Under the pieces are notes generated by a model. That model did not search any database. It was given only the letters and a program-made list of their open reading frames with translations, and was not told the origin of the DNA. This document shows positions 1 to 21,508 of a DNA stretch of 64,000 nt, in pieces (position 1 is the stretch's first letter; each line of letters begins with the position of its first letter). This stretch comes from an uncultured Clostridium sp. (lineage in GTDB: Bacteria; Bacillota; Clostridia; Oscillospirales; Acutalibacteraceae), in assembly GCA_934717555.1 (NCBI GenBank), contig CAKUYY010000005.1, positions 3,290-67,289 of the forward strand, read 5' to 3'. The translations under genes were made by a program, and so were the position numbers.

Positions 1-247
1 TGACCAGATTCTGGGCATTGGTGGACAGGAACAGCGTCCGCAGTTTATAGATAACCTCGTCGGCACGGGATTCGTCCTCGGCAATCTCCGGGTTCAGGCG
101 GATCAGGGCAGCCCGGACCATGGATTCCACCATGACGTCACTCTCATCCCGGTCCAGTTCTTCGGCAGGGATGTACTCCCAGCCGTTCCTCTGTAAGGTG
201 GTCAGGAGCATCTGCTCGGTGGTGTTGTCTTCGTTGAACTTTGGCAT
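1..247 (-). CDS. hsdR: Type I restriction enzyme R subunit (HsdR), first 82 codons only; the gene continues past the left window edge
   Basis: Truncated, so absent from the ORF track. The reverse complement from ATG(247) reads MPKFNEDNTTEQMLLTTLQRNGWEYIPAEELDRDESDV...IRLNPEIAEDESRADEVIYKLRTLF, a typical HsdR N-terminus. An AAGGAG RBS overlaps the hsdS stop 3 nt upstream. The position after hsdM-hsdS is canonical. Confidence 0.7.
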   Translation of the reverse strand, partial: MPKFNEDNTTEQMLLTTLQRNGWEYIPAEELDRDESDVMVESMVRAALIRLNPEIAEDESRADEVIYKLRTLFLSTNAQNLV

Positions 248-250
248 GAT

Positions 251-1414
251 TTACTCCTTTCTCCCGGTCCACAAAGCATCTTCCAAGATGCAGCGCTTGG
301 TGGCTTGTAGGGATGTGATGGTGTTTTGAAGGGCAGATTTGGATCTATTGGCTTTTTTGATGATTGCTTCAAACTCTTCTTGAAGATTTAATGGTGGAAG
401 TGGTTGTTTCAATTTGCATGCCTTTGATATGAGAAAATGAGCAACCGTTGTAGCTCCCAATCCGCCTTCGATTTGCGACCACACCGTCGGCATAGTAAGT
501 CCGTATGTAAAAAAAGTTTCATTTATCGAGAGCTTTTTTCTGAATAACAAAACATCGGCATCTTTAAAGTAGAAACGCTCCCCTTGCTTTATGATATACG
601 TTTTTCCAATAGTGCTTGTAGCTGAAACGATAATATCTCCTGCTTGTACTTGTTCTTCTTTTGGCCTGCTATTATAAAATTCTTCGGATACAAAAAATTC
701 ATTGGATAGTGGTTCTCCATTGGCTAGTTGAACCATATCTCTGACGCGAATAAATGGAATGTTCCCATCTGTTTTCCACTCTGATTTTAAGATACGTTTA
801 CTCGATGAAATTAAAAATATATTTTCCATTAAATCCACTGGCCATCTGCAGTGGTCGATATCGTCTTCACCAAACATCTCAATAAACCGCGCCTGCACCA
901 GGGCATCCGTTTCGGTGAGCAGTTTCTGATAGGCCTGCAAGGTGTCATTGATAGACCACAGCACCTCGGCCAGCTTCTTTTGCTCATCCATGGGCGGGAG
1001 GTCAAAGGTGTAGTTTTTCAGATTTTCCCACTTGACCCGGGGGGACAGAGAACCCGCTGATTTACCCATGGCAAATTCAAACCGATTGTCATTCTGAATG
1101 ATGAAGGGAAGCAATTCCGGCAAAAGCAGTTCCTCTTTGGCACGGATCACCGTAATGTCGCCGGAGCAGATGCCGTCAAAGGGGGCCTGTGCCGCCTTTT
1201 TCAAATAGGCACGTCTGCGGCCGAAGAGCATATCTCCCTTGTGGAACCGTTTGGTAAAAGTGTTATCGGTATCCATATCCCAGTTGGAAAGCGTGACGTC
1301 TCCCGGAGTGATATGCTCCAGGCCCACAATGGGTATACCGGTCTTATCATCCTTGTATGTTTCGCGGCTCTCCACCGCCACATCTCCCAATTTTATCTGT
1401 GACACATCACTCAC
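251..1414 (-). CDS. hsdS: Type I restriction-modification specificity subunit HsdS (two target-recognition domains)
   Basis: 387 aa. Two TRD-like halves are each followed by a conserved helical spacer (LPPMDEQKKLAEVLWSINDTLQAYQKLL and LPPLNLQEEFEAIIKKANRSKSALQ). The start overlaps the hsdM stop by 8 nt. Confidence 0.85.
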   Translation of the reverse strand: MSDVSQIKLGDVAVESRETYKDDKTGIPIVGLEHITPGDVTLSNWDMDTDNTFTKRFHKGDMLFGRRRAYLKKAAQAPFDGICSGDITVIRAKEELLLPELLPFIIQNDNRFEFAMGKSAGSLSPRVKWENLKNYTFDLPPMDEQKKLAEVLWSINDTLQAYQKLLTETDALVQARFIEMFGEDDIDHCRWPVDLMENIFLISSSKRILKSEWKTDGNIPFIRVRDMVQLANGEPLSNEFFVSEEFYNSRPKEEQVQAGDIIVSATSTIGKTYIIKQGERFYFKDADVLLFRKKLSINETFFTYGLTMPTVWSQIEGGLGATTVAHFLISKACKLKQPLPPLNLQEEFEAIIKKANRSKSALQNTITSLQATKRCILEDALWTGRKE

Positions 1415-2894
1415 CTCCCATCAGCGTGTTCAGAGCGTTGTAATTCTCCCACAGTTCTGCGGAAGCCGCACACCAGTCTTCATAGCGTTCCTGGGTTGTG
1501 CCAATCGAAACAGGCGCCGCTGTGGAAGCCGGGTCTTTTACATACAGCGGAATACTGAGAGCAAACCCATTTTTCTCAATTTCCCGGATGGACACCTTTT
1601 TGGCAATGGCACCATCGGTCTGAAATTCCCTGTAGGCCTTCTCGATGGTCTCGATATGGGACGGCTCCAGAAAACTTTCGGCGTTCTTTCGGGTCACCTC
1701 GTTCACGGCGTTGATGAACAGCACATGCCCCTTGTGGCTGTCCGGCTTTTTGGTTCGGCAGATGACGATGCAAGCCTCCATAGGGGAATTGTAAAAGAGA
1801 TTGGGCCCCAGGCCGATGACGCACTCCAGCAAATCGGAGCGCACCAGCTTTTCCCGCATATCCTTCTCCTCGTTGCGGAACAGCACCCCATGAGGAAAAA
1901 GGACCGCGCACCGGCCGGTGTCGTTTTCCATACTTTTCAAAATATGCTGGAAGAACGCATAGTCGGCGCGGCCCTGGGGCGGAACCCCCAGAAAGTTTCT
2001 GCCGTATTGGTCCGCCTCAAAGGCTTTGCGGTTCCACTGGCTGATGGAATAGGGCGGATTGGCCAGTACCACATCAAACTGTTTCAGCCGCCCGCCCTCC
2101 ACAAAGGCCGGAGCCGCGAGGGTGTCTCCGTTGACAATGTGGAAATCCTCAATGCCGTGGAGGAATAGGTTCATGCGCCCGATGGAGCAGGTCAGCGCAT
2201 TGAACTCCTGGCCATAAAGAGAGACATTGCGCCACTCCTTGTGCTGTTCTTTGAGATAGGCAACGGAAGAAACCAGCATACCGGCACTGCCACAGGTAGG
2301 ATCATAGATGGATTCTCCCGGACGAGGCTCCAGCAATTCTGCCATCAGGTGCACTACCGTCCGGTTTGTATAGAATTCCTGAGCGGTGTGGCCGCTGTCG
2401 TCAGCAAACTTCTTGATAAGATATTCATAGCCGCGCCCTAATTCATCCTCCGGACAGTTTGCCAGCGAAAGTGTCTGTGTGCTGAAATGCTCCAGCATAT
2501 CTTTCAGCAGACGATCGGGAAGCCGGCGCTTGTTGGTCCAGGTGCCGTCCCCGAAAATGCCGTGGAGCTTATCCGGATTCGCTTTCTCAATAGCGCGGAA
2601 AGCATCCTGGATTGCCTTGCCTACATCTTGTGTGACATTGCGCACAGCGTTCCAGTGGGCGTCTTTGGGGAGGACAAAGCTGTGAGTTTCCTCCCAGCTG
2701 TCTGCCTCGGGCCCGTTTTCCTGAATTGCCTTTGCGGTCTCCTCCTCATACACATCGTTGAGACGCTTGAAGAATAAAAGCGGAAAGATGTACTGTTTGT
2801 AGGAACCGGCGTCGATGTGGTTGCGAAGGAGAACGGCTGAACCCCACAGATAAGACTCCAGTTCCTCCTGGGTAATCTGCTTACTCATGGACAT
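1407..2894 (-). CDS. hsdM: Type I restriction-modification N6-adenine DNA methyltransferase subunit HsdM (paralog 1)
   Basis: 495 aa. It has the HsdM N-terminal domain (YIFPLLFFKRLNDVYEEE), EFYTNRTVV, motif I DPTCGSAGML and motif IV ANPPYS. It overlaps the upstream ORF by 14 nt. Confidence 0.9.
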   Translation of the reverse strand: MSMSKQITQEELESYLWGSAVLLRNHIDAGSYKQYIFPLLFFKRLNDVYEEETAKAIQENGPEADSWEETHSFVLPKDAHWNAVRNVTQDVGKAIQDAFRAIEKANPDKLHGIFGDGTWTNKRRLPDRLLKDMLEHFSTQTLSLANCPEDELGRGYEYLIKKFADDSGHTAQEFYTNRTVVHLMAELLEPRPGESIYDPTCGSAGMLVSSVAYLKEQHKEWRNVSLYGQEFNALTCSIGRMNLFLHGIEDFHIVNGDTLAAPAFVEGGRLKQFDVVLANPPYSISQWNRKAFEADQYGRNFLGVPPQGRADYAFFQHILKSMENDTGRCAVLFPHGVLFRNEEKDMREKLVRSDLLECVIGLGPNLFYNSPMEACIVICRTKKPDSHKGHVLFINAVNEVTRKNAESFLEPSHIETIEKAYREFQTDGAIAKKVSIREIEKNGFALSIPLYVKDPASTAAPVSIGTTQERYEDWCAASAELWENYNALNTLMGGE

Positions 2895-5298
2895 AACCTC
2901 CTTCCATCAGCAATTTCCGCATTTTAGCTTCCGCGGTACGGACGGCCTCCAGTGCGGCGAAGTAGTTCTGGCGAACCACGGCAGGAGGAATGGTTTCCTG
3001 CTTTTTCCGTTCAATATATCGCTTAACACTCAGGTCAAAACCGCCATCTTCCACGTCTTTCAGCGTGACAACTTTGCATCGCTCGATGACATCGGTGTAG
3101 TTGCTGTACAGGTCATACAGTGTCTGGATGTTGGCCGGCGAGAGCTCGTTTTGCGCCCGTTTTGGGGTATAGACCCCAGAGCCGTCAATCAGGCAGATGC
3201 GCCCCTTGTGGGTGTGGCTCTTCTTGTTGTTCAAGTAGAGGATACAGGCCGATACACCGGTGCTGTAAAATACACCGCTGGCCAGGGTGATGACGGCTTC
3301 CAACTTATCCGAAAGCACCAGCTGCTTGCGCATTTCGCCCTCTTTACCAGAATGGAAGAGCACGCCCTGAGGAAGCACTACAGCACAGCGACCATTTTTC
3401 GGATCCATGGATTTGACCATGTGCTGAAGCCAGGCGAAGTCTGCATTGGAGTCCGTCGGGCAGCCCCACAGATTTCGCCCATATTGGTCCGATTCAAACT
3501 GAGCAGATCCCCACTTGGCCATGCCGAAGGGAGGATTGGCAAGCACACAGTCAAAAGTTTTGATTCTGCCGCGTTCCAGAAACAGCGGATTGCGAAGCGT
3601 GTCTCCCTGTTTAACTTGAACATCTTTCGCGCCGTGAAGATACAAATTCATGCGGGCAATGGCAGACGTAGACAGGTTGTTCTCCTGACCGTAGATTCTA
3701 CCATAGGCAAGGCGGTCATTGTGCATGTGGCGGATTGCCTCGATTAACATCCCACCAGTGCCGCAGGCAGGATCGTATACGGTTTCTCCGGGCTGCGGGT
3801 CAAGCAGATTGACCATCAGCTTCACAATGGTACGGGGCGTGTAAAACTCGCCAGCGTTTTTCTTGGAAAGGTCTGCAAACTTTTTGATGAGGAATTCGTA
3901 GCTGTCGCCCATAATGTCTGCGGAGTAATCTTTGTTGCCGACCCGGATGCTGGACATGTGCTCGATCAGATTTTTGAGCCGCTCATCAGACAGCTTGTTC
4001 TTATCTGTCCAGGTGGCATCGTCAAAGCTGCTGAATACACCGGACAGGGTATCAGGATTTGCTTTCTCAATCCCGGTCATAGCGTTTACGATGGCCTTGC
4101 CGACATCCTTGGTTACCTTGCGGACGTCTTCCCAATGACAGCCATCGGGAATGACAAAGGAGTGCATTTCCTCGGCCTCTGCATATTCCACATCACCGCC
4201 GGAAAACGCCAGTGCATCTGCGTATTCCTCGTCATAAACATCCGAAATTCTCTTAAAAAAGAGAATGGGGGTTACATAGCTTTTGTACTCATCCTGGTTG
4301 ATGGGACCGCGTAAGATGTTGCAGGCCTCAAACAAATGGTTGAAAAGCTTCTTGCTTGTGGTTTCTTCCATTTCAGCTTCAGTGGATCGTACATCTTCCT
4401 CTGCAGCCTGCACGGCATTTTCGATTAGGGTGGCACGGTCTTCTCCGGACACCTTTCGAGTCTCATCCCGCTTGACCGGAATAGGAAGGTTCCGCATATG
4501 TCTCTCCATCACGGGAGTATATTTGTTTTCGAACTCTATCAGGATTTGAAGCAGCCGCTCGTCCAGAAAGGTCAAGGCATGTTTGCGAATGTCCGCCGGA
4601 ATACCATAGTAGGCCTCCGAAACACCGCCGCAGATGGCTGCCAAGGTATCACTATCTCCGCCGATGGAAATGGCGTTTCGGATGGCATCTTCAAAACCGG
4701 TGGATTCAAAGAAGGCCATCAATGCCTGAGGGACTGTATCTTGGCAGGTTTCATTGAAACGGTAAGTTGACCTGATGCCGTCGAGCGTAAAGTTCAGCAG
4801 GTAGTAGTTCTGCTCGATATAATCCCGGATTTCCAAAATACTGCTTCCGGTTCGGGCCATGTAAATGGCGGCTGCGGTAGCCTCAGCACCTTTTAACCCC
4901 TCTGGATGGTTATGGGTCACCTCGGTAATTTTTCGGGAAAGCAGCTTTGCTTCCTCCAGACTGCTGGCCGCAAAGCCGGCAGCGCTGACCCGCATGGCAG
5001 CTCCGTTTCCGAAGCTGTTATAGGGGTGCGGATCATCTGAAAATACCCACTTGGAGAACGCTGTGCCATATCCGCAGCCCGGATAATTTCTGCCTATGGA
5101 CTGCATGTACTCCACGGATTTTTGCGAAAGATTGCTATAATCCGGGGCGCTCTCCAAAATTGCCTTTGCCAATGCTAATGTCATGACGCTGTCATCGGTG
5201 GCAAAGCACTTATAGGTGAGAAAGTCAAAATCTTTGGTTTTAATATTGTTCCATTCAAAACGGGAACCTACGAGATCCCCAATGATTGCTCCTAGCAT
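2881..5298 (-). CDS. ADP-ribosylglycohydrolase (ARH/DraG-like) domain fused to a full HsdM-type N6-adenine DNA methyltransferase (paralog 2)
   Basis: The ORF track gives 2881..5361, which starts at a GTG. An ATG at 5298 preceded by AAGGAGacagaaatt is the more likely start. N-terminal ARH motifs: GAIIGDLVGSRFE, FATDDSVMT, SFGNGAAMRV, HNHPEG, GGDSDTLAAICGG. C-terminal HsdM motifs: PILFFKRISDVYDEEY, EFYTPRTIV, DPACGTGGML, ANPPFG. Confidence 0.8.
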   Translation of the reverse strand: MLGAIIGDLVGSRFEWNNIKTKDFDFLTYKCFATDDSVMTLALAKAILESAPDYSNLSQKSVEYMQSIGRNYPGCGYGTAFSKWVFSDDPHPYNSFGNGAAMRVSAAGFAASSLEEAKLLSRKITEVTHNHPEGLKGAEATAAAIYMARTGSSILEIRDYIEQNYYLLNFTLDGIRSTYRFNETCQDTVPQALMAFFESTGFEDAIRNAISIGGDSDTLAAICGGVSEAYYGIPADIRKHALTFLDERLLQILIEFENKYTPVMERHMRNLPIPVKRDETRKVSGEDRATLIENAVQAAEEDVRSTEAEMEETTSKKLFNHLFEACNILRGPINQDEYKSYVTPILFFKRISDVYDEEYADALAFSGGDVEYAEAEEMHSFVIPDGCHWEDVRKVTKDVGKAIVNAMTGIEKANPDTLSGVFSSFDDATWTDKNKLSDERLKNLIEHMSSIRVGNKDYSADIMGDSYEFLIKKFADLSKKNAGEFYTPRTIVKLMVNLLDPQPGETVYDPACGTGGMLIEAIRHMHNDRLAYGRIYGQENNLSTSAIARMNLYLHGAKDVQVKQGDTLRNPLFLERGRIKTFDCVLANPPFGMAKWGSAQFESDQYGRNLWGCPTDSNADFAWLQHMVKSMDPKNGRCAVVLPQGVLFHSGKEGEMRKQLVLSDKLEAVITLASGVFYSTGVSACILYLNNKKSHTHKGRICLIDGSGVYTPKRAQNELSPANIQTLYDLYSNYTDVIERCKVVTLKDVEDGGFDLSVKRYIERKKQETIPPAVVRQNYFAALEAVRTAEAKMRKLLMEGGYVHE

Positions 5299-5389
5299 AA
5301 TTTCTGTCTCCTTATGCGGACTCTTTATGATGCTGCATGAATAGGATATAGCATTTGTCACCTACATTCATCACGGGGCGATTCCTCCT

Positions 5390-7009
5390 TCAAAAAGTCT
5401 GAAGCTTGGTGAGAACTTTAGTCCAACGTTTTTCAGCTGCAGCTACAGTTTCTTTGTAGTTCGTCAGTTCTTCGAGGTACTCCTTGACCACCGCTTTCTG
5501 TGTGTCTAGCAGGGGGATGGGAACTTCCAAAACTTTCAGATCCCGATAGCTGATATTCATCACAGTCGTGCCTTGTTGGGCGCTGCTAATGAGCTTGTTA
5601 CCGATAGGGCTATCCAAGAAAATTTTCAAGTAGATGCTGTCGAGCATCTTGGCGTCTGGCCGGATTACGATCAAATTGGACGAGGCGATACATGGATAAC
5701 TCTGTGAGTGAAACACAGCGGTTCGAATTGCGGTTCCCCTGGCAGGAAGAAGTACATCCCCCTCTTGCAGCAGATAGTTGAATACTTTACGTTCCTCTTC
5801 CTGCAAGTGCTCCAACCCGGCGTAGTCAATTTCATAATCGCCTATATTGGAGATGTTCACTATACCGATGTTACCGGATGGATCTTTCTTGGTTATGGCT
5901 TTGCCACGGAATACCTCTGCAACATTCCCAATCATATCTTTCCGGAGGTTAGAACTTTGATAGTTCTGATAGTCCTCGTCTTGTTGCGCAAAAATCTGAT
6001 CAATGTTCCAGTCTCCTTGTTCTTCCAGCTCGGACAGCATGACAAAGGTATCGTCTTTCACTTCTAGTGATGTGACCGCCTCTCGGCGGGTCTTCTTGGA
6101 AGAAGAGTATCTCCGGACAACAATATCAGTGTCGTCGTACGGCCGATTGTTTTCGAGGTCCAGTAGATAGACCTTAATGCCGCAATATGATATGGTCCCT
6201 TCAGGAAGTTCTCCAATTTCCCTAATGGTATAAGTCGTCTGAACAAACTGTCGAAGATCGCTAATCTTTCCAGACGCAAAGGTGATTCGGCCTGGAAGAG
6301 TAATCACCAGGCGACCGCCATCATTCAAGTGGAGCAATAGATTCTCTAGTGCAACCATCTCGAATTCTCTACATATAAAGTTTGGGTCGTCTGACAGCAT
6401 CCGGCCGCCAAAGTTCGGACAGGCAAAGATAAGATCGAATCGGCTGTTTGTGAACTCATAGCGGTAAATGTCAGATATAATGACTTCCACATTATCATAT
6501 TTTCCGAAGATGTTTTCTAAGACTCGGGCATAAATCATGTTTTGAGTCGTAAGCACAAACTTCGAGTTAATGTTCTCATCAATTATAGACTGCAAGTTTG
6601 GGACAAACTTTTCGGCCTCGGCGATGAGAACCGTTTGGGGGTGGAAGACAAAACGATCTGTGTAGACATTTACCAACGCTTTGGGGAGCAAAGGCTTCTT
6701 GGATGTTGATAATATTTGAGCCATGAGTCCTTCCAAATCAGCATGTCGGACCTGATCGATACTCTTGTAGACAAGAATAAAATGTTCCTTGTCACGGAAA
6801 GGATTTCTGATATTTAGTTTGTCGGCGGATTCCAACAAGGAAATATAAAGCTCATCGTCAGTGGCCTTAGCGTTCTGGTTTTGGAATCGTTTCTTGACTT
6901 TATCTATCAGAACGATCGCAGCAATGCTATCATCATGCGCGACTGCACTTCTGATCACATTCCAGTAGGCTGGGAGTTTATTTTGAACGTCGCTTCTCAT
7001 CGTTTTCAT
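5390..7009 (-). CDS. Methyltransferase-like protein (degenerate motifs I and IV) fused to a single HsdS-type target-recognition domain
   Basis: 539 aa. FDLIFACPNFGGRM and LNDGGRLVITLPGRITF resemble N6-MTase motifs IV-VI, but CPNF replaces NPPF/Y and no DPxxGxG loop is seen. The C-terminal ~200 aa resemble a half HsdS (GDVLLPARG, LIVIRPD, VPIPLLDTQKAVVKEYLEEL coiled-coil). An AGGAGG RBS sits at 7013-7018. Confidence 0.6.
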   Translation of the reverse strand: MKTMRSDVQNKLPAYWNVIRSAVAHDDSIAAIVLIDKVKKRFQNQNAKATDDELYISLLESADKLNIRNPFRDKEHFILVYKSIDQVRHADLEGLMAQILSTSKKPLLPKALVNVYTDRFVFHPQTVLIAEAEKFVPNLQSIIDENINSKFVLTTQNMIYARVLENIFGKYDNVEVIISDIYRYEFTNSRFDLIFACPNFGGRMLSDDPNFICREFEMVALENLLLHLNDGGRLVITLPGRITFASGKISDLRQFVQTTYTIREIGELPEGTISYCGIKVYLLDLENNRPYDDTDIVVRRYSSSKKTRREAVTSLEVKDDTFVMLSELEEQGDWNIDQIFAQQDEDYQNYQSSNLRKDMIGNVAEVFRGKAITKKDPSGNIGIVNISNIGDYEIDYAGLEHLQEEERKVFNYLLQEGDVLLPARGTAIRTAVFHSQSYPCIASSNLIVIRPDAKMLDSIYLKIFLDSPIGNKLISSAQQGTTVMNISYRDLKVLEVPIPLLDTQKAVVKEYLEELTNYKETVAAAEKRWTKVLTKLQTF

Positions 7010-7034
7010 CCTCCTACTTCTGATCTTTGAGTGT

Positions 7035-7063
7035 ATTGTACCATGATTTCACACACACGTCAA
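7035..7063 (-). promoter_or_regulatory. Sigma-A type promoter of the RM-derived operon
   Basis: The minus strand reads TTGACG-17 nt-TACAAT, with TGg immediately upstream of the -10 (extended -10-like). It lies about 25 nt upstream of the AGGAGG RBS and ATG at 7009. Confidence 0.6.
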
Positions 7064-7219
7064 CCGTGAGCATTATTTTGGTATGTAAGTACTAAAATAA
7101 TGTTTTGCTTTATAAAACTACTACTTTACAATTCTGCAAGCAGATTACATAGACGAGACGAAAAAGCGGCTACTCATCACTCTAAAGGAGAAATCTATTC
7201 CTTTCTGTCTTATCATATG

Positions 7220-7253
7220 AAAAAGGGTTGTCCCAAACAGGACAGCCCTTTTT
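7220..7253. terminator. Rho-independent terminator hairpin (bidirectional) isolating the RM operon from upstream debris
   Basis: AAAAAGGGTTGTCC-caaaca-GGACAGCCCTTTTT. The 13-bp stem has one G-U pair and is flanked by A and T runs. Confidence 0.65.
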
Positions 7254-7308: not shown

Positions 7309-7449
7309 CTAGGTTGTCAGTTCCTTCTGCTCCTGTTCGCTGGCGTAGAATTTTTGAATCTCAGGTACAAGAAACCGAGAGAAGGAATCAATGATGGACT
7401 GCGGCAGTTCGATTGTGTATGGGTTCTGATGTTTTTCTTGGCTGGCCAT
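7309..7449 (-). CDS. Small hypothetical protein (46 aa), possibly a mobile-element accessory gene
   Basis: Below the ORF-track cutoff. It reads MASQEKHQNPYTIELPQSIIDSFSRFLVPEIQKFYASEQEQKELTT and is followed by the 7220-7253 terminator. The RBS is weak. It resembles small proteins I associate with Firmicute conjugative elements, but this is unverified. Confidence 0.3.
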   Translation of the reverse strand: MASQEKHQNPYTIELPQSIIDSFSRFLVPEIQKFYASEQEQKELTT

Positions 7450-12048: not shown

Positions 12049-13097
12049 CTGTGTATTCCCCCTTCAGCCGCCAGACGCAACTGAGCAATCAATTCTTCTA
12101 AAATCACCCGGTTATCTACTCGGGAACTTTTTAAACGGATATCCGCTTCCAAGATCAGGCGAAGGCTTTGGCGCAATTGTTCCATTGACATGTTTCGGAC
12201 ATCCCTCTCTGCGTTTCGCAAACGGAACTCTTTCCCCTTATAGGGAAAACTCTGCGATAATTGGAAAGGCGCTACGCCGCTTTCCAGCGCCACCTTTACC
12301 CGGTAAAGATCCACATAGGCAGACGAGAGGACCGCCAAGATCATCACCGGCTCTTCTTTCTGATAAAGCAGTAAATCCAACTGCCGGTACGCTTGGTCGT
12401 ACCGCCCCGCTACCAGGGCCTTGGACAAAACAAATACCGTAGTCTCTAAGTTCTGCGTGACTACCTGGTCGATATCCTGCCGGGTAATTTCCCTCCCTTG
12501 GGCAAATGCGCACAGCTTTTCCATTTCTTGGCTTAATACCAAGAGGTCTTCCCCACAAAGCTGTATCATCCAACCCGCATCGGCCCGACTTAGGGTATTT
12601 CCCCTTTTTTCCGCCCATCCTACCAGTTGTTTTTCCAGTGTCGGAGTATCCCGTTTGCATAGTTCCGCTACACAGCCAGCTTTCTGCGCGGCCGCAAGAA
12701 ACTTCTTCCATTTGGCCGATTTTTTTACGTCCATCTCCAGGGTAGACTGGCTCACAATGAGTACAGTAGTTTCCGGCAAGTCCTCCAGAAGTTCATAAAG
12801 CTTTTTTAGTCCCGAAGCCGGCAGCGTTTCCACATTGAGATCATGCACCACAACGCACTTGCGATCCGCCAGCATCGGCAGGGCCTCCACTGCATCCGCG
12901 ATACTATCCACATCGCTGATGCCTGAAGGAAAAGACTGAAAATTAAAATCCGAATATCCTTTTCCCAAAATCTTCTGTACCATCTGCGTTGTGTAGTGTT
13001 TAATGAGATACTTTTCTTCCCCATAGAGCACATAAAGCCGGTCAAAAGTTTTTTCCCGAATCTGCTTTTTTAAATCTGTTTCTTTAATCTGAGGCAT
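12045..13097 (-). CDS. holA: DNA polymerase III subunit delta
   Basis: 350 aa. The N-terminus (YVLYGEEKYLIKHY) and size are typical, and it shows the conserved comEC-holA synteny. Confidence 0.8.
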   Translation of the reverse strand: MPQIKETDLKKQIREKTFDRLYVLYGEEKYLIKHYTTQMVQKILGKGYSDFNFQSFPSGISDVDSIADAVEALPMLADRKCVVVHDLNVETLPASGLKKLYELLEDLPETTVLIVSQSTLEMDVKKSAKWKKFLAAAQKAGCVAELCKRDTPTLEKQLVGWAEKRGNTLSRADAGWMIQLCGEDLLVLSQEMEKLCAFAQGREITRQDIDQVVTQNLETTVFVLSKALVAGRYDQAYRQLDLLLYQKEEPVMILAVLSSAYVDLYRVKVALESGVAPFQLSQSFPYKGKEFRLRNAERDVRNMSMEQLRQSLRLILEADIRLKSSRVDNRVILEELIAQLRLAAEGGIHR

Positions 13098-13099
13098 TC

Positions 13100-15325
13100 T
13101 TATTCCCTCCTTATACTGACCGCCCCGCTGGAATCCTGTTCTAAAACAAGGTTTCCCTGCCCACCGGTGACAAAGATTTCCCCGGCCTGTGGCGTATAAC
13201 GAACAATCCCTTCTCTGGCTGTTTCCTCGCTGACCGAAAATACAGCGTATTGGCTGGAGATTTCCCCTCCCCTTGCGTCTGGAACCCCTGTGATATAAAA
13301 ATGGCTATCCAGCCCCGGTGTCTCCGCTTTCCCTGTAGGGTCAACGGTTATTTGAAGATCCCCTATTGACAAGTGTGTATACCCGTTTTTCATATCCGTA
13401 TAAACAGAAGCCTTTCCCCACAGGTCTACTTGTGTTTGGCCGCTCACCATTGCCGCCTCTTGCGCTACATGCATACTGTTCCAAAGCCGTTCTTCTTTCT
13501 TCGCTTCTTCCGGCAACTCCAGCAATCGGGGAGGATATGACAAAATAACTTGATACGCCCCTTGGTTACCTTCCTGTTCTATACTGGGAAGTACCATATA
13601 ATCCAAACTGTGCACATTCTTCTCCCGGAAATGCCGTTGTACCGCCTCGGGCGCATAACGGCCTCCTCCACAGGAGATCACAGCCCCATGCCCCTGATAG
13701 GAGAGTGTCACGGCGCATCCGTCCCCCACGTCCAAAATAGCGACCTCCACAGAATTCCTGTGGAACACCCATTGGCATACGCCTCCAAAAATCAGGAGCA
13801 AACAGCTAAACCATGCCGCTATCCTCCGATTAGAGCGTGTAGGAGACCACCAGACCACTGCCAGCAGTACCAGCGTCCCCATAAGCCATAACAATAGAAA
13901 GTCTTCTCCCACCGATAGGCTCGCAAAGGGAATGTCAGCCAAACAGGAAGCACACGCCTGCAGATATTGAATCAGCAGGCTGGAAAGGAATAGAAAAGGC
14001 ATTGCCAAAAAGGAAACCACGCCCGTAAAAGATAAGAGAACCGCGGCCATTGTCCCTATCATCATCAACATAGCAGGCCCTACCAGCAACAAATTGGCAA
14101 GAATCGATACCAGGGAAAACTCCTGGAAAGTAAGCAAAATAACCGGGATTGTAAACAGTGTGGCGGATACTGTAACTGCCGCAGAATCGCCGATCCATTT
14201 CCATATCCGTTTTCCGTGGGAAATGCGGGATACCACTTTTTGATTCCATTGGTTTAAAAGCTTCCCGGAAACTAAAAGGATGCCTAAGGTACAGGCAAAG
14301 GATAACAACAGCCCTACATCTCCCGCCGCAAAGGGGTTGGCTACAGTGAGAATCCCAACAGCCGCCCCTAAGGAATTGAGAGAATCTGGTTCCCTATATA
14401 TCATCATCCCCAAAAGCATCAGAATGGACATGAGGCCCGCGCGCATCACGGAAGGGGAAAATCCGGTGACCGCCATAAATGCTATCACTCCAATGATAGA
14501 CAACCCCGCCGCCATCCGCCTGCGCAAGCGTAGGAACAGGAAAAGATGCAGCAGGCATTGGGTAACAGCGGCCATGTGCAAACCGGATACTGCCAGCAGA
14601 TGGGAAACCCCTATTCTCTGGAAATCCTCCTGGGTTTCCTGCGTCATCTGCTCTTTTGCGCCCAGCAACACCCCGGCGGCCATCCCCGACTGTTTCGAAG
14701 GAAACAGTAACCGTATGCGATGAAGAATTTCCTCCCGGGCTTTCAAGGCGTAATAATAGGGAGGGTAATGATCCGGGGATTGGATGGAAAACGGCTCATA
14801 CTCATAGAGAAAACCGGTCAGCCGGATTCCTTTGGATTGGTAGTAAGCGGCGGAATCCAGCCCGCTTCCCCTTTCCGGGACAAAAAGGCGGACCTTGCCC
14901 GTCACCCGGTCATATACGCCGGCATCCAGCGCATGGGTAGCGGTAATCCGAATATGGATGGACTGAGGCGCCCCTTCTATTTCCACCCGATCCGTCTGGA
15001 TCTCATAATAGTAACGCCCGTCTTTCTGATAGGGCAACTCACAGATGGAGCCGGAGATCTCCATATCCCGGCCGTCCAGAAACTCCACCGGCCGCACCAG
15101 CCACATCTGTCCCAAGCCATATGCGATGCACGCCATCCCGGCGGCTATACAGGCGATGGGCACAGCCTTTTCCCTGCGCAGGCGGGGAATCAAAAGAGAA
15201 ACCACAAAGAATAACAAGCATCCCGCCGCCAGATACCAAGAAATACTTTCCCCAAAGAAAACAGCGGCTGCCTGACCAAGCAGATATGAAAAACCTACCA
15301 GTGCAAGCGGCCGCTTCATAATCAT
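13100..15325 (-). CDS. comEC: DNA internalization-related competence protein ComEC/Rec2
   Basis: 741 aa. It is polytopic with a competence domain (GVSHLLAVSGLHM) and a C-terminal metallo-beta-lactamase-like region. Confidence 0.85.
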   Translation of the reverse strand: MIMKRPLALVGFSYLLGQAAAVFFGESISWYLAAGCLLFFVVSLLIPRLRREKAVPIACIAAGMACIAYGLGQMWLVRPVEFLDGRDMEISGSICELPYQKDGRYYYEIQTDRVEIEGAPQSIHIRITATHALDAGVYDRVTGKVRLFVPERGSGLDSAAYYQSKGIRLTGFLYEYEPFSIQSPDHYPPYYYALKAREEILHRIRLLFPSKQSGMAAGVLLGAKEQMTQETQEDFQRIGVSHLLAVSGLHMAAVTQCLLHLFLFLRLRRRMAAGLSIIGVIAFMAVTGFSPSVMRAGLMSILMLLGMMIYREPDSLNSLGAAVGILTVANPFAAGDVGLLLSFACTLGILLVSGKLLNQWNQKVVSRISHGKRIWKWIGDSAAVTVSATLFTIPVILLTFQEFSLVSILANLLLVGPAMLMMIGTMAAVLLSFTGVVSFLAMPFLFLSSLLIQYLQACASCLADIPFASLSVGEDFLLLWLMGTLVLLAVVWWSPTRSNRRIAAWFSCLLLIFGGVCQWVFHRNSVEVAILDVGDGCAVTLSYQGHGAVISCGGGRYAPEAVQRHFREKNVHSLDYMVLPSIEQEGNQGAYQVILSYPPRLLELPEEAKKEERLWNSMHVAQEAAMVSGQTQVDLWGKASVYTDMKNGYTHLSIGDLQITVDPTGKAETPGLDSHFYITGVPDARGGEISSQYAVFSVSEETAREGIVRYTPQAGEIFVTGGQGNLVLEQDSSGAVSIRRE

Positions 15326-15418
15326 TTCTCCAATCCTTTTGCAGATTGCGGGGAATTTCTTTTCCTCATAATTTTCTGAAAAAAAGAAATTCCCTTTCTC
15401 CTCAATAAGACAAACTTT

Positions 15419-15970
15419 TTATTTGACAAACAGAGGCAGCGGCTCCAGGAAAATAATATCTTTCCGGTTTGCCGCGTCTCCTTCTGCCAATACGCTGGCA
15501 CAGCCCACAATGTTTCCGCCGGCTTCCTGTACCAGCTTTTCCAAAGCGGAAAGGGATTCTCCCGTACTGATCACATCATCTACAATCAGAACCCGTTTTC
15601 CCTTCAAAGACTGATAATCCTCCTCCGCCAAATACAGTACCTGCTGTTTCGCGGTTGTAATGGACTTCACTTCCACCTTAATGGGATTACGCATATACAG
15701 CTTGACACTCTTACGCGCTACCACATATTTGCGGCATCCCTGGCGGGCCATTTCATAGCAAAGTGGAATGCCCTTTGCTTCCGCTGTGATCACAATATCA
15801 TGTTCCGGGCACTTTTCCAACAGGGCAGCCGCGGCTTTCTCTGTCAGCTCCACATCGCCAAACATGATAAATGCAGCGATATCCAATTTATCGTCCACTG
15901 GGCACAACGGCAAATCCCGTTCACAACCCGCTATGGTCATTTTATAAACTCGACTCATTGATTCAACCAT
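15419..15970 (-). CDS. Phosphoribosyltransferase family protein (purine PRT-like)
   Basis: 183 aa with the PRPP-binding motif VLIVDDVISTGESL. Confidence 0.7.
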   Translation of the reverse strand: MVESMSRVYKMTIAGCERDLPLCPVDDKLDIAAFIMFGDVELTEKAAAALLEKCPEHDIVITAEAKGIPLCYEMARQGCRKYVVARKSVKLYMRNPIKVEVKSITTAKQQVLYLAEEDYQSLKGKRVLIVDDVISTGESLSALEKLVQEAGGNIVGCASVLAEGDAANRKDIIFLEPLPLFVK

Positions 15971-16421: not shown

Positions 16422-19052
16422 TTATTTTACCATATCTGATAGTACGGTTTCCACTGCTTCCAGCGCTTTTTCTACCATAGACGGATCTTTTCCCCCGGCC
16501 ATCGCCATATCCGGTTTTCCTCCGCCGTTACCGCCGGCTATCTTGGCAACCGCACGCACGATATTGCCCGCATGGGCTCCCTTTCCCTGGGCTTCTTTAC
16601 CCACGGTAGCCGCGAATGTAACCTTTTCCCCATTCACAGCCGCCAGCACCGCCACGCAGTCTGGCGCCTGATCCCGGATTTTATCGCACATAGACCGCAG
16701 GGCATCCGGGGTAGTCCCTGTAAAGGAAGATGTGATAAACCGCACTCCCTGGGCTGTCTTAGCCTGAGCGAACAGTTGGTTTACCTGATCAGCCGCCATC
16801 TTTCCACGCAGCTGCTCAATAATCCGATCCTTCTCCTTCAAGTCGGCGGTCAACTGGTTACAACGATGTACCAGATCGTTGGAATTTCCCAGCTTCAAAG
16901 CGGCGGAAGCCTCCTGGATGGTGTTCTGCATCTCATTGACCAGGTTTATCATCCCAATCCCTGTGACAGCCTCAATCCGGCGCACACCCGATGCCACGGA
17001 GCTTTCAGAAATAATTTTAAACAACCCCAGCTTGGCCGTATTGTCCACATGGGTGCCTCCGCAAAATTCAATAGAGAAATCCCCCACGCTGACTACCCGG
17101 ACGACATCGCCATACTTTTCTCCAAACAAAGCCATAGCTCCCAGCTTTTTGGCTTCCTCAATGGGCATTTCGCGGGTTACCACTGGAATGCTGAACAAAA
17201 TCTTTTGATTGACCAAGTTTTCTACTTTGGAAATCTCTTCTGAAGTTAATGCGGAAAAATGAGTAAAGTCAAAACGTACATGCGCCCCGTTTACCAACTG
17301 GCCAGCCTGCTCCACATGGGTACCCAGCACACTGCGCAGGGCCGCCTGCAAAAGATGTGCCGCGGTATGGTTGCGCATGATACTGCGCCGGCGCACACTG
17401 TCCACCTGTACGCTCACAGATTCCCCGCAGGAAATCATGCCCGCCTTTACTTTAGCCTGATGCAGGAAAATCCCGTTGTGGTTTTTCGTTGTATTGATCA
17501 CATCCACTGCGGTATCCACAGAACCGATAACGCCTGTGTCTCCTACCTGTCCGCCGCTTTCCGCATAGAGCGTGGTGCGGTCTAATACGATCACCACTTC
17601 ATCCCCTGCGTTGGCATGGTCCACTCTCTGCCCATCCTTAATGATGGCTTTAACCACCGCGGGGGTATCCATCTGGCGGTATCCCAAAAACTCGGTGGGC
17701 TCAACCCCTTCCAGATCTGCCTGGTCGCTGAGCCAGGCATCCGCTCCCGCATTCTTTCTAGCCGCACGGGCACGGTCCCGCTGCTCCTTCAGCAGGCGGC
17801 TGAATTCCTCTTCGTCTACCTTCATACCGCGCTCCGCCAGGATTTCCTTGGTGAGATCCAGCGGGAACCCGTAGGTATCATTCAGCCGGAAAGCATCTTC
17901 TCCCGAAATAACATCCAGGTCCGCGGTATCCATCAGGGTATTGAGCATCTGCATGCCCTGGTCGATGGTTTTCGCAAAGCTTTCTTCCTCCACACTAACC
18001 AGTTTTTTGATATAATCCCGCTTTTCCACCAGTTCTGGATAAGCATTCTTGTTTTCTTCAATGACTGTGTCGCACACCTCAGCCAGGAAAGGCTTGTTGA
18101 TCCCCAGCAACCTGCCATGGCGGGCCGCACGGCGCAACAGGCGGCGCAGCACATAGCCCCTGCCTTCATTAGAGGGCAGTACCCCGTCGCCGATCATAAA
18201 AGTAGTACTGCGGATATGGTCGGTAATCACACGCAGGGAGATATCGCTCTTTTCCCCTTCCCCATATTGGACACCCGCGATCCGGCTGATGTGTTTCATG
18301 ATATTCTGCACAGTATCTACCAAAAAGAGGTTGTCCACCCCCTGCATGATACAGGCCAAACGTTCCAAACCCATTCCGGTGTCGATGTTGGGATGTTCCA
18401 AAGGAGTATAGTTGTTATTTCCGTCGTTTTCAAACTGGGTAAATACCAGGTTCCAGAATTCCACATAGCGGTCGCATTCACAACCTACCCCGCAGTTGGG
18501 AGAACCGCACCCATACTTTTCCCCGCGGTCAAAATAAATTTCCGAACAGGGGCCGCAGGGACCGGAGCCATGTTCCCAGAAGTTATCTTCTTTTCCCATC
18601 CGCACAATGCGTTCCGGGGCGACACCCACCTCTTTGGTCCAGATATCGAAAGCCTCGTCGTCATCCTGATAAATGGTAACCCAAAGCTTGTCCACAGGCA
18701 GCTCCAGCACTTGTGTGCAGAACTCCCACGCCCAGGCGGTAGCCTCATGCTTGAAGTAGTCGCCAAAGGAGAAATTGCCCAGCATCTCAAAATAGGTACC
18801 GTGGCGGGCGGTAATCCCTACCCGTTCAATATCCGGCGTACGGATACATTTCTGGCAGGTAGTAACCCGCTTTCTGGGCGGCGTCACTTCTCCAGTAAAA
18901 TACTTTTTCATCGGCGCCATGCCGGAGTTAATCAGCAGCAGGCTTTTGTCGTCTTTCGGGATCAACGGGAAGCTGCCCAAACGCAAATGCCCCTTTGATT
19001 CAAAAAAGGAGAGAAACTTTTCTCTCAGTTCGTTTAATCCAGTCCATTCCAT
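16422..19052 (-). CDS. alaS: Alanine--tRNA ligase
   Basis: The ORF track gives 16422..19061, which starts at a GTG. The ATG at 19052 (MEWTGLNELREKFLSFFESKGH) is the likelier start. Length is about 876 aa, with the editing-domain HxxxH motif (HTAAHLL) and a C-terminal DHHA1-like GGGKPDMA. Confidence 0.95.
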   Translation of the reverse strand: MEWTGLNELREKFLSFFESKGHLRLGSFPLIPKDDKSLLLINSGMAPMKKYFTGEVTPPRKRVTTCQKCIRTPDIERVGITARHGTYFEMLGNFSFGDYFKHEATAWAWEFCTQVLELPVDKLWVTIYQDDDEAFDIWTKEVGVAPERIVRMGKEDNFWEHGSGPCGPCSEIYFDRGEKYGCGSPNCGVGCECDRYVEFWNLVFTQFENDGNNNYTPLEHPNIDTGMGLERLACIMQGVDNLFLVDTVQNIMKHISRIAGVQYGEGEKSDISLRVITDHIRSTTFMIGDGVLPSNEGRGYVLRRLLRRAARHGRLLGINKPFLAEVCDTVIEENKNAYPELVEKRDYIKKLVSVEEESFAKTIDQGMQMLNTLMDTADLDVISGEDAFRLNDTYGFPLDLTKEILAERGMKVDEEEFSRLLKEQRDRARAARKNAGADAWLSDQADLEGVEPTEFLGYRQMDTPAVVKAIIKDGQRVDHANAGDEVVIVLDRTTLYAESGGQVGDTGVIGSVDTAVDVINTTKNHNGIFLHQAKVKAGMISCGESVSVQVDSVRRRSIMRNHTAAHLLQAALRSVLGTHVEQAGQLVNGAHVRFDFTHFSALTSEEISKVENLVNQKILFSIPVVTREMPIEEAKKLGAMALFGEKYGDVVRVVSVGDFSIEFCGGTHVDNTAKLGLFKIISESSVASGVRRIEAVTGIGMINLVNEMQNTIQEASAALKLGNSNDLVHRCNQLTADLKEKDRIIEQLRGKMAADQVNQLFAQAKTAQGVRFITSSFTGTTPDALRSMCDKIRDQAPDCVAVLAAVNGEKVTFAATVGKEAQGKGAHAGNIVRAVAKIAGGNGGGKPDMAMAGGKDPSMVEKALEAVETVLSDMVK

Positions 19053-19061
19053 GTTACACAC

Positions 19062-19335
19062 ATCCTACTTTCTGTTTTCCATACACAAAAAAGACTCCCC
19101 CTCGTCCACATTGGGACGGAGGAAGCCGTGGTACCACCCAAATTGCGCTTTTTTCAAAACGCCACTCAAATTCTTTAACGCAGAAGATACGCTGCGGCTC
19201 GTCGCCCCAGGGCTCCAGGTTGGCCGGACTTTTTCCAAAACGGAAAGCCTTTCACCAAAAGTGGCTCTCTCTCTGCATCTATGGAATAAAATCCTATTCC
19301 CTTCTATGCCGATCCGAATATCTTGGATGAACGGG
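19062..19335 (-). promoter_or_regulatory. T-box riboswitch leader of alaS
   Basis: The minus strand carries AGAGAG and GGTGAAA stem-I elements and the T-box sequence AATTTGGGTGGTACCACGG (19126-19144). A terminator hairpin CCTCCGTCC...GGACGAGGGGGAG plus TTTTTT (19086-19126) follows. Confidence 0.85.
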
Positions 19336-19338
19336 TTT

Positions 19339-19367
19339 ATTATAATCCTTAAACCAAAGCTTGTCAA
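19339..19367 (-). promoter_or_regulatory. Consensus sigma-A promoter for the alaS leader
   Basis: The minus strand reads TTGACA-17 nt-TATAAT exactly. Confidence 0.7.
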
Positions 19368-19401
19368 TCTTCCTTTCGACATTCTCCCCAGAAAACTTCC
19401 C

Positions 19402-19791
19402 TCACCCTATACGGGACAATAACCAGCTGGCCGCCAACCGTCCTAATAAGATACCGGACAAACATCCCCCTATGCTCATCAACAGGTATATACTGCCCTG
19501 TCCCCAATGCCCCGACTGATAGAGGTTCACCGTTTCCAAGCTAAAGGTCGAAAATGTGGTGAATCCTCCCAAAGTCCCCGTGGTAAGAAAAAGCTGAAGC
19601 CCTTTTTTATCAGGAAAACATTGGGAAAACAGGGCAGTAATAAATCCCATGAAAAACGCCCCTATTACATTTGCCAGCAATGTGGCCACTGGAAACCCTT
19701 GGAAATCCCAGCGCTGGAACCCTAAAGATAACAAATAACGGCAGCAGGCTCCTATAAAGCCGCCGCATCCCACCAGGAATACTTGAAGCAT
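19402..19791 (-). CDS. crcB: Fluoride ion channel CrcB/FluC
   Basis: The ORF extends to 19839, but MLQVFLVGCGGFIGACCRY at 19791 behind a GGGGGA RBS is the typical CrcB start. The protein is small with four TM segments. Confidence 0.85.
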   Translation of the reverse strand: MLQVFLVGCGGFIGACCRYLLSLGFQRWDFQGFPVATLLANVIGAFFMGFITALFSQCFPDKKGLQLFLTTGTLGGFTTFSTFSLETVNLYQSGHWGQGSIYLLMSIGGCLSGILLGRLAASWLLSRIG

Positions 19792-19891
19792 CTTTTCCCC
19801 CTGCAAGCGTTTTTTCTCAAAATAACATACAGTCCCCATAAACTGTTTACATCTGCTATTGTACCTTGCCGGGAGAAAAGATGCAATGTTT

Positions 19892-21508
19892 TTAAGCCAT
19901 CCCTTTATAATGCAGTTGATCCGCTATCTGCTTGAATACGGGGCCGCAGCTGCGGCCTCCTCCTTCCCCGTCTTCAGCAAATACCACAATCACATATTTG
20001 GGATTTTGAGCGGGATAAAAACCTGCATACCATGCCTGATCCAATTCCTCGTCCCCTATTTTTACACCGGTCTCCGCGGTGGCGGTTTTTGCGCCCGCCC
20101 CCCCTTTTTCCGGTTTTCCTTGGGAGCTGGTCCCGAATTCCACAGAGGAACGCATATACTCCATGATTTTTTCCGTTGTGGACGCTTGTAAAACCCTCGC
20201 AGGTTCTTTTACTGGATACTCTTCCTGGAATGTTCCTTCTTCATCTACCAGCCCCTGTACCAGCCTTGGCTGCGTATACTCCCCTTGGGATACGACAGCA
20301 TTAATCAGCGCTGTAATCTGGATTGGGGTAGCGGTCAATTCCCCCTGTCCAAAAGAGAAGTTTGCCAATGCCCTGTGATTGGACAGATTCCGTTCGCTGG
20401 GAAGTACCCCGGCTGCGGATTCCATTCCCGGAGCCAGTTCAACAGCTTCTCCAAATCCCAAATTTTGGGCCTCATACAGTAGTTTTTTTCCTCCTATTTG
20501 CTGTGCCAAATGGATAAAATAGCAGTTGCAGGAATAGGCGATGGCTTTGTCCATATCCACATCCCCATGGGCGGTTCCATTGATACAGTGAAAAGTGGCG
20601 CCGTCTACTTCAATACTGCCGGTACAATGATAGGTTCCTTCTGGAGATATCCCCTCTTCCAGCGCTACAGAAGCCGGTACCAGCTTAAATACCGATCCCA
20701 AATTATAGGCGGAGAGGGCCCGGTTTAAAAGAGGAGAATCCTCACGGTTTAAAACTGCGGAAAGGTTGGTGGGCGAAAAATCAGGACGGCTGACAACTGC
20801 CAGCAGATCGCAGCTTCCCGCTTCCGCCACTACCACGGCACCGCGCTTGATATAATTATTGGAAGCGATTTCCGCAATACGCTGGACATCTGCGTCTATA
20901 GTAAGTTTTATCCCTTTTGCAGCCAAATCGGAGGTATCGGAAATCAGTTCCTGTTCGCCAGGTAAAATGCGGTTGAGGGCATCTACTGGATATCGCACTG
21001 AAATCTGGGCCCCTGTTTGGGATAAATACTCGTCATATGACTTTTCCAGTCCAGAAATCCCCGTCCCGCTCCCATCCAGGTATCCAATGATATGGGATAG
21101 CGTTTGTGGTGTCCGATACCGTTCGCTTACGGAAAAAGTGTGGATTCCTTCCGATGACCATACGGCGTTATATTTTGGTTTAATTAGGAAAGGCTTTCCG
21201 GCTGACAACAGGGTAAATACCGATTCCTTTTCTTCCTCAGGCAATGTTTCTGAGAGAAAGTTGGCCGCTTCTACCGTAGGGGATACCGCCGCGATCGTGG
21301 TGTGGTCCTGCCCTGTGAGAGGAAACCCGTTGCGGTCGTAAATCGCCCCCCTTAATTTAGAAACATTAAGCTGATAAGAACTCTGGCTGGTAGCTGCCGC
21401 CTGTAAATCATCCTCCATTGTGAGGAAGTAAAGGCGGCACATCAACCCTACCGTGCCCGCCATCAAAATACAAAATAGTGCAAGGGATCTCTTTTGTAAC
21501 CGGTTCAT
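19892..21508 (-). CDS. Penicillin-binding protein 2 / peptidoglycan D,D-transpeptidase (class B PBP, no PASTA)
   Basis: 538 aa. It has an N-terminal TM anchor, SxxK (GSVFK), SxN (SCN) and a KT(G/A) motif (GAKTATAETG). Confidence 0.85.
   Translation of the reverse strand: MNRLQKRSLALFCILMAGTVGLMCRLYFLTMEDDLQAAATSQSSYQLNVSKLRGAIYDRNGFPLTGQDHTTIAAVSPTVEAANFLSETLPEEEKESVFTLLSAGKPFLIKPKYNAVWSSEGIHTFSVSERYRTPQTLSHIIGYLDGSGTGISGLEKSYDEYLSQTGAQISVRYPVDALNRILPGEQELISDTSDLAAKGIKLTIDADVQRIAEIASNNYIKRGAVVVAEAGSCDLLAVVSRPDFSPTNLSAVLNREDSPLLNRALSAYNLGSVFKLVPASVALEEGISPEGTYHCTGSIEVDGATFHCINGTAHGDVDMDKAIAYSCNCYFIHLAQQIGGKKLLYEAQNLGFGEAVELAPGMESAAGVLPSERNLSNHRALANFSFGQGELTATPIQITALINAVVSQGEYTQPRLVQGLVDEEGTFQEEYPVKEPARVLQASTTEKIMEYMRSSVEFGTSSQGKPEKGGAGAKTATAETGVKIGDEELDQAWYAGFYPAQNPKYVIVVFAEDGEGGGRSCGPVFKQIADQLHYKGMA

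Follow-up and report, generated by a model that had tools for sequence, protein, structure and literature searches.

Canonical Type I restriction-modification (R-M) enzymes are M2S1R2 complexes encoded by one methyltransferase (M), one specificity (S), and one restriction (R) gene. How, then, should one read an operon that carries two M genes, an S gene, an R gene, and a fifth gene that joins a methyltransferase-like domain to half of an S subunit? Such an operon, with genes here called g1 to g5, lies at positions 1 to 7063 of the window, by which we mean the whole 64,000-nucleotide (nt) stretch analyzed in this work (contig CAKUYY010000005.1 from an uncultured Clostridium sp.). We consider it fairly probable that the operon encodes an R-M enzyme of a known kind, in which two methyltransferases and one S subunit (M1M2S) act with R, and that two further modules are built into it: g1 as an operator-binding autoregulator, and an ADP-ribosylhydrolase (ARH) domain as an add-on to M1. 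All five genes are on the minus strand and are tightly packed:

5390-7009 as listed, or 5390-7000 from the ATG at 7000, minus strand: g1, 536 amino acids (aa)
2881-5298 from an ATG, or 2881-5361 from a GTG, minus strand: g2, 805 aa from the ATG
1407-2894, minus strand: g3, M2 methyltransferase, with DPTCGSAGML, NPPY, and an NSPME loop
251-1414, minus strand: g4, HsdS with two target recognition domains (TRDs); Methylase_S in two stretches (Pfam)
1-247, minus strand: g5, the first 82 codons of hsdR, with HSDR_N, ended by the window edge

An initial annotation, made from the sequence alone, had called the gene products dead-M/half-S, ARH-HsdM, HsdM, HsdS, and HsdR, and Pfam agrees for every gene. 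Beyond the domains listed above, g1 gives a weak N6_Mtase match (21 bits) and one Methylase_S; g2 gives ADP_ribosyl_GH (121 bits), HsdM_N, and N6_Mtase; and g3 gives HsdM_N and N6_Mtase.

The five-gene order and its two-methyltransferase core

Related loci were surveyed by a scan with one genome per species, which returned 80 loci (individual loci are cited below by number, with the prefix L). The order g1, (ARH-)M1, M2, S, R is present through at least the second M gene in approximately 55 of the 80, and most of the remainder are interrupted by contig ends. This order is kept in Lachnospiraceae, Oscillospiraceae, Paenibacillus, Brevibacillus, Bacillus, Veillonellaceae, Melainabacteria, and rumen Alphaproteobacteria. 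On the long contigs of three relatives (a metagenome bacterium, Clostridioides difficile, and Clostridium folliculivorans), g1, ARH-HsdM (805 aa), HsdM (∼495 aa), HsdS, and HsdR (∼970 aa) follow one another on one strand. Hundreds of full-length g1 relatives were found in all, and a plasmid search gave no close one. Since the arrangement recurs in so many loci of several phyla, it is no chance juxtaposition. The initial annotation had treated the locus as one unit, and the survey bears this out: the first two genes travel with the hsdMSR core. The proposal that g1 and g2 are chance neighbors or decaying remnants without function in the system can draw on frameshifted or truncated copies in some loci (L168, L169, and L004), but it is effectively refuted by the intact, full-length arrangement, which is kept at 35% to 98% protein identity across several phyla.

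Two M genes in a Type I operon have a precedent. In the m4C/m6A subgroup (PacII, BceNI, and others), whose enzymes form N4-methylcytosine (m4C) and N6-methyladenine (m6A), the gene order is M1, M2, S, R, with M2 adjoining S and R after it (Morgan 2016, PMC5100572). The upstream M1 of this subgroup has an NPPF motif and yields m6A, and the downstream M2 has NPPY, yields m4C, and contains an Asn-Ser-Pro-Met-Glu loop; the two proteins are 45 to 55% identical, and the first TRD (TRD1) of S, which reads the cytosine half-site, is conserved (PMC5100572). M2 and S without M1 show no activity; the two methyltransferases work jointly on one S (PMC5100572). The structure of the PacII M1M2S complex has been solved (PDB 7VRU; Zhu 2022, PMC9613975).

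The resemblance of the window's operon to PacII was reached through Foldseek and sequence searches of solved structures, in which g2, g3, and g4 each have the PacII counterpart as their best solved relative. The best PDB match of g2 is PacII M1 (7vru_A; 470 bits, versus 399 for M2), that of g3 is PacII M2 (7vru_B; 575 bits, versus 430 for M1), and residues 6 to 160 of g4 align with TRD1 of PacII S (E = 2.5e-31). At motif IV, g2 reads LANPPFG and g3 reads LANPPYS; across loci, 58 of 59 upstream M genes have NPPF, and all 55 downstream ones have NPPY. The NSPME loop is present in g3 (FYNSPMEAC), and g2 has FYSTGVSAC at this place. Between the two M proteins, identity is 44%. The second TRD of g4 is variable, and several relatives conserve S in its first half only (56 to 69% identity). 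Finally, the order of g2 to g5 is the published one.

Because each of these features agrees with the published kind, g2 to g5 are, judged by sequence, a two-methyltransferase Type I R-M system of the m4C/m6A type, with g2 predicted to form m6A and g3 predicted to form m4C. A canonical Type I system with one M gene was ruled out by the two distinct, conserved M genes. Given membership in this characterized family, M1 (g2, adenine) and M2 (g3, cytosine) would bind one HsdS (g4) to make the M1M2S methylase, which HsdR (g5) would join to cut unmethylated DNA. This bears on two suggestions of the initial annotation. A heteromeric M pair, offered there as the second option, fits PacII-type M1 and M2 and is a known arrangement rather than a new one. 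The view that two M paralogs extend the Type I paradigm does not hold, as the combination of an NPPF-bearing M1, an NPPY-bearing M2, S, and R was described in 2016 and solved in 2022. What sets the present operon apart from PacII-type systems is an N-terminal ARH domain of 270 aa, with a linker, on M1, and also the way it begins, with g1 as an additional conserved gene whose promoter has a conserved palindrome; we found neither g1 nor the palindrome mentioned in PMC5100572 or PMC9613975.

Gene 1 and the palindrome at its promoter

From its N terminus, g1 consists of an HsdM-like helical domain, a degenerate Rossmann methyltransferase domain, a single TRD resembling that of Esub1 (see below), and a C-terminal conserved-region helix. 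In a profile-profile alignment with HsdM, FACPNFG of g1 falls on the NPPY position (as CPNF), and the S-adenosylmethionine (SAM)-binding loop DPxCGxGG is deleted. Among 84 representatives of the g1 family, reaching down to 24% identity, none has NPPF/Y at motif IV or the glycine loop, and one carries NPPF outside this position. The dead state is thus ancient and shared by the whole family, and g1 as an active methyltransferase was ruled out. The AlphaFold model of g1 is confident for residues 11 to 340, matches HsdM subunits, and contains the C-terminal helix (residues 501 to 538). Among the Foldseek matches listed, only the M-S fusion of Vibrio vulnificus YJ016 (PDB 7EEW) is long enough (650 columns) to span the whole model. 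Like g1, this fusion is a single chain in which a TRD and a helix come after a methylase domain; the g1 family differs in having neither the SAM-binding loop nor the NPPF/Y motif.

The C-terminal part of g1 (residues 348 to 537) is homologous to Esub1 (PDB 8VSQ), with E = 1e-38, 36% identity, and a single one-residue gap, the region of the "insertion helix" being ungapped. Esub1 (SpyM3_0890 of Streptococcus pyogenes; PDB 8VSQ and 8VSR) is a half-S-like homodimer in solution with two identical putative DNA-binding heads and no assigned function (PMC11754733). The two proteins share a single TRD with the insertion helix, followed by one long dimerization helix. They differ in that Esub1 has only ∼200 aa, lacks the HsdM-like half, and is encoded away from Type I genes.

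Esub1 also gives some footing to a decoy model, in which g1 would be an inert mimic of the M2S1 clamp that absorbs phage anti-restriction proteins. Paratox, a streptococcal prophage protein, binds Esub1 at its putative DNA-binding surface (PMC11754733); moreover, g1 is the first gene of the operon, and its fold matches that of an M-S fusion crystallized with the DNA mimic Ocr (7eew). The paratox-binding motif of Esub1, however, Rx(hydrophobic)xR or RxFxR, is not kept in g1, which has RKVFN, and its second Arg is not conserved in the g1 family. The decoy model also leaves unexplained a conserved palindrome in the promoters of all family branches, and we regard it as very doubtful.

This palindrome was derived by aligning the upstream regions of 68 g1 genes, and its counterpart in the window stands 13 nt upstream of the −35 box of the operon promoter:

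7077-7096: 20-bp palindrome, candidate operator, TTTAGTACTTACATACCAAA on the minus strand, with 2 mismatches to the consensus
7035-7063, minus strand: predicted sigma-70-type promoter, TTGACG-17-TACAAT, with a TG extension

The consensus of the palindrome family is TTTGGTAT-N4-ATACCAAA. With at most 2 mismatches, it is found in 63 of the 68 upstream regions, 4 to 21 nt upstream of a near-consensus TTGACA. Conservation at its 16 specified positions is 85 to 100%, and the central two positions vary freely. The window contains only the one copy, and in 1.35 Mb of related loci all but one of 77 sites are upstream of g1. A single site is the rule, and a second operator is not general. Viral contigs hold 76 exact palindromes, 6 of them beside g1 homologs; the others look like chance occurrences in coding DNA, and these contigs gave no sign of phages that carry the site. 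In one relative (L088:8083-10001), operator and promoter are intact, with ∼1.9 kb of extra sequence before g1.

The promoter itself, which the initial annotation had also placed at 7035 to 7063, ranks first among the promoter-like sites in 9 kb, with 10 of 12 positions matching. Such a match alone is not significant, because the 9-kb scan gave 12 sites where 10.3 were expected. The call is instead supported by conservation, as a near-consensus TTGACA occupies the corresponding position in more than 60 related loci.

The core of the palindrome, GTAT-N4-ATAC, extends beyond the two-methyltransferase operons. It fronts the g1-like genes of single-M Type I operons, it occurs in two copies that flank the core promoter of an orphan g1 relative of 582 aa, and among stand-alone Esub1-like genes of three sequence groups it lies across the −10 box or the start of transcription. 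The TRD with its helix is the only module common to all palindrome-associated proteins. The orphan, a pseudo-methylase with a TRD, is found in L006 (12285-12445, and likewise in L007 to L009), where its two copies read GGTAT-N4-ATACC, one of them just 5' of its TTGACA box and the other 3' of its −10 box. Another family member of 582 aa stands alone beside a Cas9-Cas1-Cas2 locus (L166:6001-7749).

A conserved palindrome at the promoter of g1's own gene thus indicates a regulatory, DNA-binding role, and we infer that g1 is an operator-binding autoregulator rather than a second specificity subunit. On this proposal, g1 would be the dead descendant of an M-S fusion methylase. Its Esub1-like TRD and coiled-coil helix would form a homodimer that clamps the palindrome at its own promoter much as an M2S1 methylase would, though without catalysis. 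Binding beside the −35 box would autoregulate the whole operon, most likely by repression. Repression is favored on two grounds: in the stand-alone and orphan relatives, the site covers the core promoter or flanks it, and a clamp of M2S1 size centered 15 to 25 bp from the −35 box would reach that box.

The model that the initial annotation preferred was different: two alternative complexes that share HsdR, one of HsdM with HsdS and one of ARH-HsdM with g1 as its specificity subunit. It does have points in its favor, namely the co-inheritance of all five genes, the presence in g1 of a TRD and of a conserved helix where M subunits normally dock, and the partial activity of M1 with S alone in published systems, so that M1 can work without M2 (PMC5100572). 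On the other side, the M proteins sort cleanly into an M1 and an M2 of the kind that jointly serves one S, and g1 is also found beside an M1 without ARH, at the head of single-M Type I operons (as g1-like genes of 35 to 38% identity), and as an orphan. The TRD of g1 also lacks the diversification typical of restriction specificities: in three loci g1 is 86, 65, and 59% identical where HsdS is 54, 27, and 30% identical, and by this comparison the TRD is nearly invariant, unlike that of a restriction specificity subunit. The palindrome at its own promoter weighs the same way. Its core, GGTA-N6-TACC, is laid out like a symmetric Type I site, its adenines 7 bp apart. Outside the operator this sequence occurs 11 times against 7.5 ± 3.6 expected, so that it is neither avoided nor enriched, and this chance frequency therefore gives no support for restriction at the core. 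For these reasons we hold the two-complex model to be unlikely. Genes like g1 are annotated "restriction endonuclease subunit S," a name that probably misdescribes them.

The same adenines raise a further option, an epigenetic switch, in which g1 would give M1 a fixed specificity, the operator adenines would be methylated, and the operon would be under the control of its own methylation state. The spacing of 7 bp is that of the methylated bases in published M1M2S systems (PMC5100572), and promoter-methylation control is known in other R-M systems (PMC12707154). Yet the stand-alone Esub1-like genes and the orphan g1 relatives share the palindrome, and the stretches shown around them have no called M gene; moreover, in a g1 dimer the protein's own dead methylase domains occupy the places beside the TRDs. 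We judge this switch quite unlikely.

If g1 is instead an autoregulator, it would stand in for a controller (C) protein, although it is not one itself. C proteins are small Xre-type helix-turn-helix proteins that bind a C-box, and Type I systems are thought to be controlled mainly after translation. As in operons with C proteins (PMC12707154), g1 comes first and a palindromic operator lies at its own promoter. The likeness is functional only, as Pfam finds no helix-turn-helix family in g1, which would contact DNA by means of a pair of Type I TRDs. The one dedicated transcriptional controller that the review PMC12707154 reports for a Type I locus is of the helix-turn-helix kind: in Mycoplasma gallisepticum, the C gene lies upstream of the hsd operon, and an ordinary C protein represses the whole operon (PMC12707154). 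Methylase-repressor fusions such as SsoII are also known (PMC12707154).

Our literature searches found no paper on a dead M-S protein or on a Type I operator such as this one, nor any description of the cassette of g1 and its operator, which we consider the more interesting of the two new modules. If g1 does bind the palindrome, a restriction specificity module would have been recycled into a transcription factor, and promoter, operator, and g1 would together form a portable cassette placed before at least two different Type I families. More tentatively, and with the balance still somewhat against it, g1, its orphan relatives, and Esub1 may make up a new class of sequence-specific regulators, assembled from Type I restriction components, that bind (A/G)GTAT-N4-ATAC(C/T) as homodimers and regulate their own genes, the ARH domain in the present operon being a built-in eraser of ADP-ribose marks by which restriction would else be blocked. 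Esub1 would then gain a function and a DNA site, and its targeting by paratox would be explained.

The ARH domain of M1 and the weighing of the proposal

The second addition to the core enzyme is found at the N terminus of g2, which divides into three parts:

4489-5298, minus strand: N-terminal ARH domain of g2, with GAIIGD, TDDS, and GGDSDT motifs
4354-4488 (aa 271-315), minus strand: charged linker of g2 between the ARH domain and the M1 body
2881-4353, minus strand: M1 methyltransferase body of g2 (HsdM_N and N6_Mtase), with DPACGTGGML and NPPF

The ARH domain scores 120.9 bits against PF03747 (cut-off, 26.2 bits), and three ARH motifs (GD, TDDS, and GGDSDT) were detected in 48 of 50 full-length copies. 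These are the metal-binding catalytic motifs known from ARH3 and DraG, and they are intact in g2. The domain has the ADP_ribosyl_GH fold with acidic metal-binding motifs in common with ARH3, DraG, Tri1, and DarG3. Specific assignments to the DraG and Tri1 equivalogs were rejected, the scores being only 57 bits (cut-off, 337) and 32.5 bits (cut-off, 490), respectively. The domain is ∼77% identical to a stand-alone ARH protein of 265 aa from gut Firmicutes whose gene adjoins a DUF6508 gene; in L006, a stand-alone ARH gene (78% identical to the ARH domain of g2) and a DUF6508 gene lie ∼4 kb from an orphan g1 relative.

The fusion is present in most Firmicute members, and M1 occurs without ARH in the loci of Melainabacteria, Alphaproteobacteria, and some Lachnospiraceae. 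As it is missing in these clades, the domain is an optional add-on. In L169 (8013-10593), an ARH-HsdM of 530 aa is encoded behind a gene for a WYL-domain regulator with no g1, M2, S, or R nearby. This locus may have decayed, or it may put the fusion to another use.

Our best guess, held with low confidence, is that the ARH domain strips ADP-ribose off DNA or off the enzyme to which it belongs. In this way, it might keep restriction and modification working when a phage or toxin uses ADP-ribosylation. Two published observations provide context: DarG3 of DarHTG is an ARH-like antitoxin that accompanies a DNA ADP-ribosylating defense toxin (PMC13069673), and DarTG is often inserted in Type I operons (PMC8883491). 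A DarTG-type module was rejected here, since no DarT-like or other transferase gene was seen in the window, in the annotated loci, or among the inserted genes of nine loci. The genes inserted between g1 and M1 in relatives encode an HNH nuclease, a DUF2971 protein, and proteins of no assigned kind, none of them a transferase. We could not find a description of an ARH fusion to M1, or of any ARH-HsdM or ARH-Type I fusion, in the literature. The fusion suggests an unexplored link between ADP-ribosylation and restriction.

Several points weigh against the combined proposal. Only comparison across loci connects g1 with the palindrome, the site could instead be bound by an unrelated host factor, and the distant orphan relative in L166 (24% identity) has no palindrome upstream. 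The palindrome stands at varying distances from the −35 box, commonly 5 to 14 nt, and this does not separate repression from activation. The TRD half of the AlphaFold model of g1 is poor (pLDDT < 50) and thus unusable, for which reason the match to Esub1 at the sequence level was relied on. Delaying R relative to M is the usual reason for a controller, and one promoter for five genes cannot itself bring about such a delay. For the enzyme, the methylation type and the restriction activity derive from homology. For the proposed role of the ARH domain of g2, no ADP-ribosyltransferase gene was seen within the scope given above for the DarTG-type module.

Gene boundaries, flanks, and cargo in related loci

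The gaps and overlaps given in the initial annotation are confirmed by the coordinates. The gap between g1 and g2 is 91 nt to the ATG at 5298 or 28 nt to the GTG at 5361; g2 and g3 overlap by 14 nt and g3 and g4 by 8 nt; and g4 and g5 stand 3 nt apart. For g1, the ATG at 7000 is the more likely start, because it follows AGGAGG (7015-7010) at a distance of 9 nt and the homologs have 536 aa. For g2, the ATG at 5298, which had been preferred from the beginning, is the conserved start, as the homologs have 805 aa and lack the 21-aa extension from the GTG. The remainder of hsdR and anything downstream lie outside the window, as had been recognized. The exact HsdS protein is not on record, and the only contig with the exact g1 (L001) also ends before hsdR.

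Searches for defense systems with PADLOC and NCBIfam gave generic Type I matches only. The MADS equivalogs stayed far below their cut-offs (80 bits against 720 for MAD2 and 47 bits against 400 for MAD5).

Upstream of the operon promoter, the initial annotation had placed a terminator that insulates the locus. A terminator-like hairpin is indeed present:

7229-7244, minus strand: hairpin GGGCTGTCC-TGTT-TGGGACAACCC, then a T run

It lies downstream of a 46-aa open reading frame (ORF) and upstream of the operon promoter, but it is a pattern match only, the 9-kb scan having given 19 terminator-like sites where 9.5 were expected. The 46-aa ORF (7309-7449, minus strand) is uncalled and has no Pfam match, and no gene like it is called at the corresponding place in relatives. 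The flank farther upstream is chromosomal housekeeping sequence, with genes for an O6-methylguanine methyltransferase, a glycosylase, holA, comEC, alaS, and a penicillin-binding protein.

Related loci carry additional genes at several places. In the closest long relative (g1, 86% identical; M1 and M2, 93% identical), genes for KwaA and KwaB (Kiwa) directly follow hsdR (L002:19626-21040 and L003:11189-12603), and the part downstream of the window may hold Kiwa genes as well. Between g1 and M1, a protein of 328 aa with a C-terminal HNH nuclease motif is encoded in L005 (11624-12613) and also in L020, L039, and L045; in L004 it is split into two ORFs. Its conserved N-terminal domain has no Pfam match, and the protein may be an embedded second nuclease. 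The same slot holds a DUF2971 protein of 320 aa in L031 (3017-3979) and L049 (2001-2966), and a protein of 210 to 220 aa with no family match in L028 (11609-12274) and L033 (11630-12259).

In L168 (4462-6781 and 16985-19317), M1 is split by a frameshift, and genes for IS21-type transposases lie upstream. This locus also has an integrase gene and an extra hsdS gene after hsdR, which may constitute an invertible specificity switch. Finally, in L080, a single-M operon headed by a g1-like gene, PIN_12 and Abi_C proteins are embedded among the hsd genes and a KAP NTPase gene follows hsdR (coordinates 12779-13711, 14947-15759, and 19000-20352).

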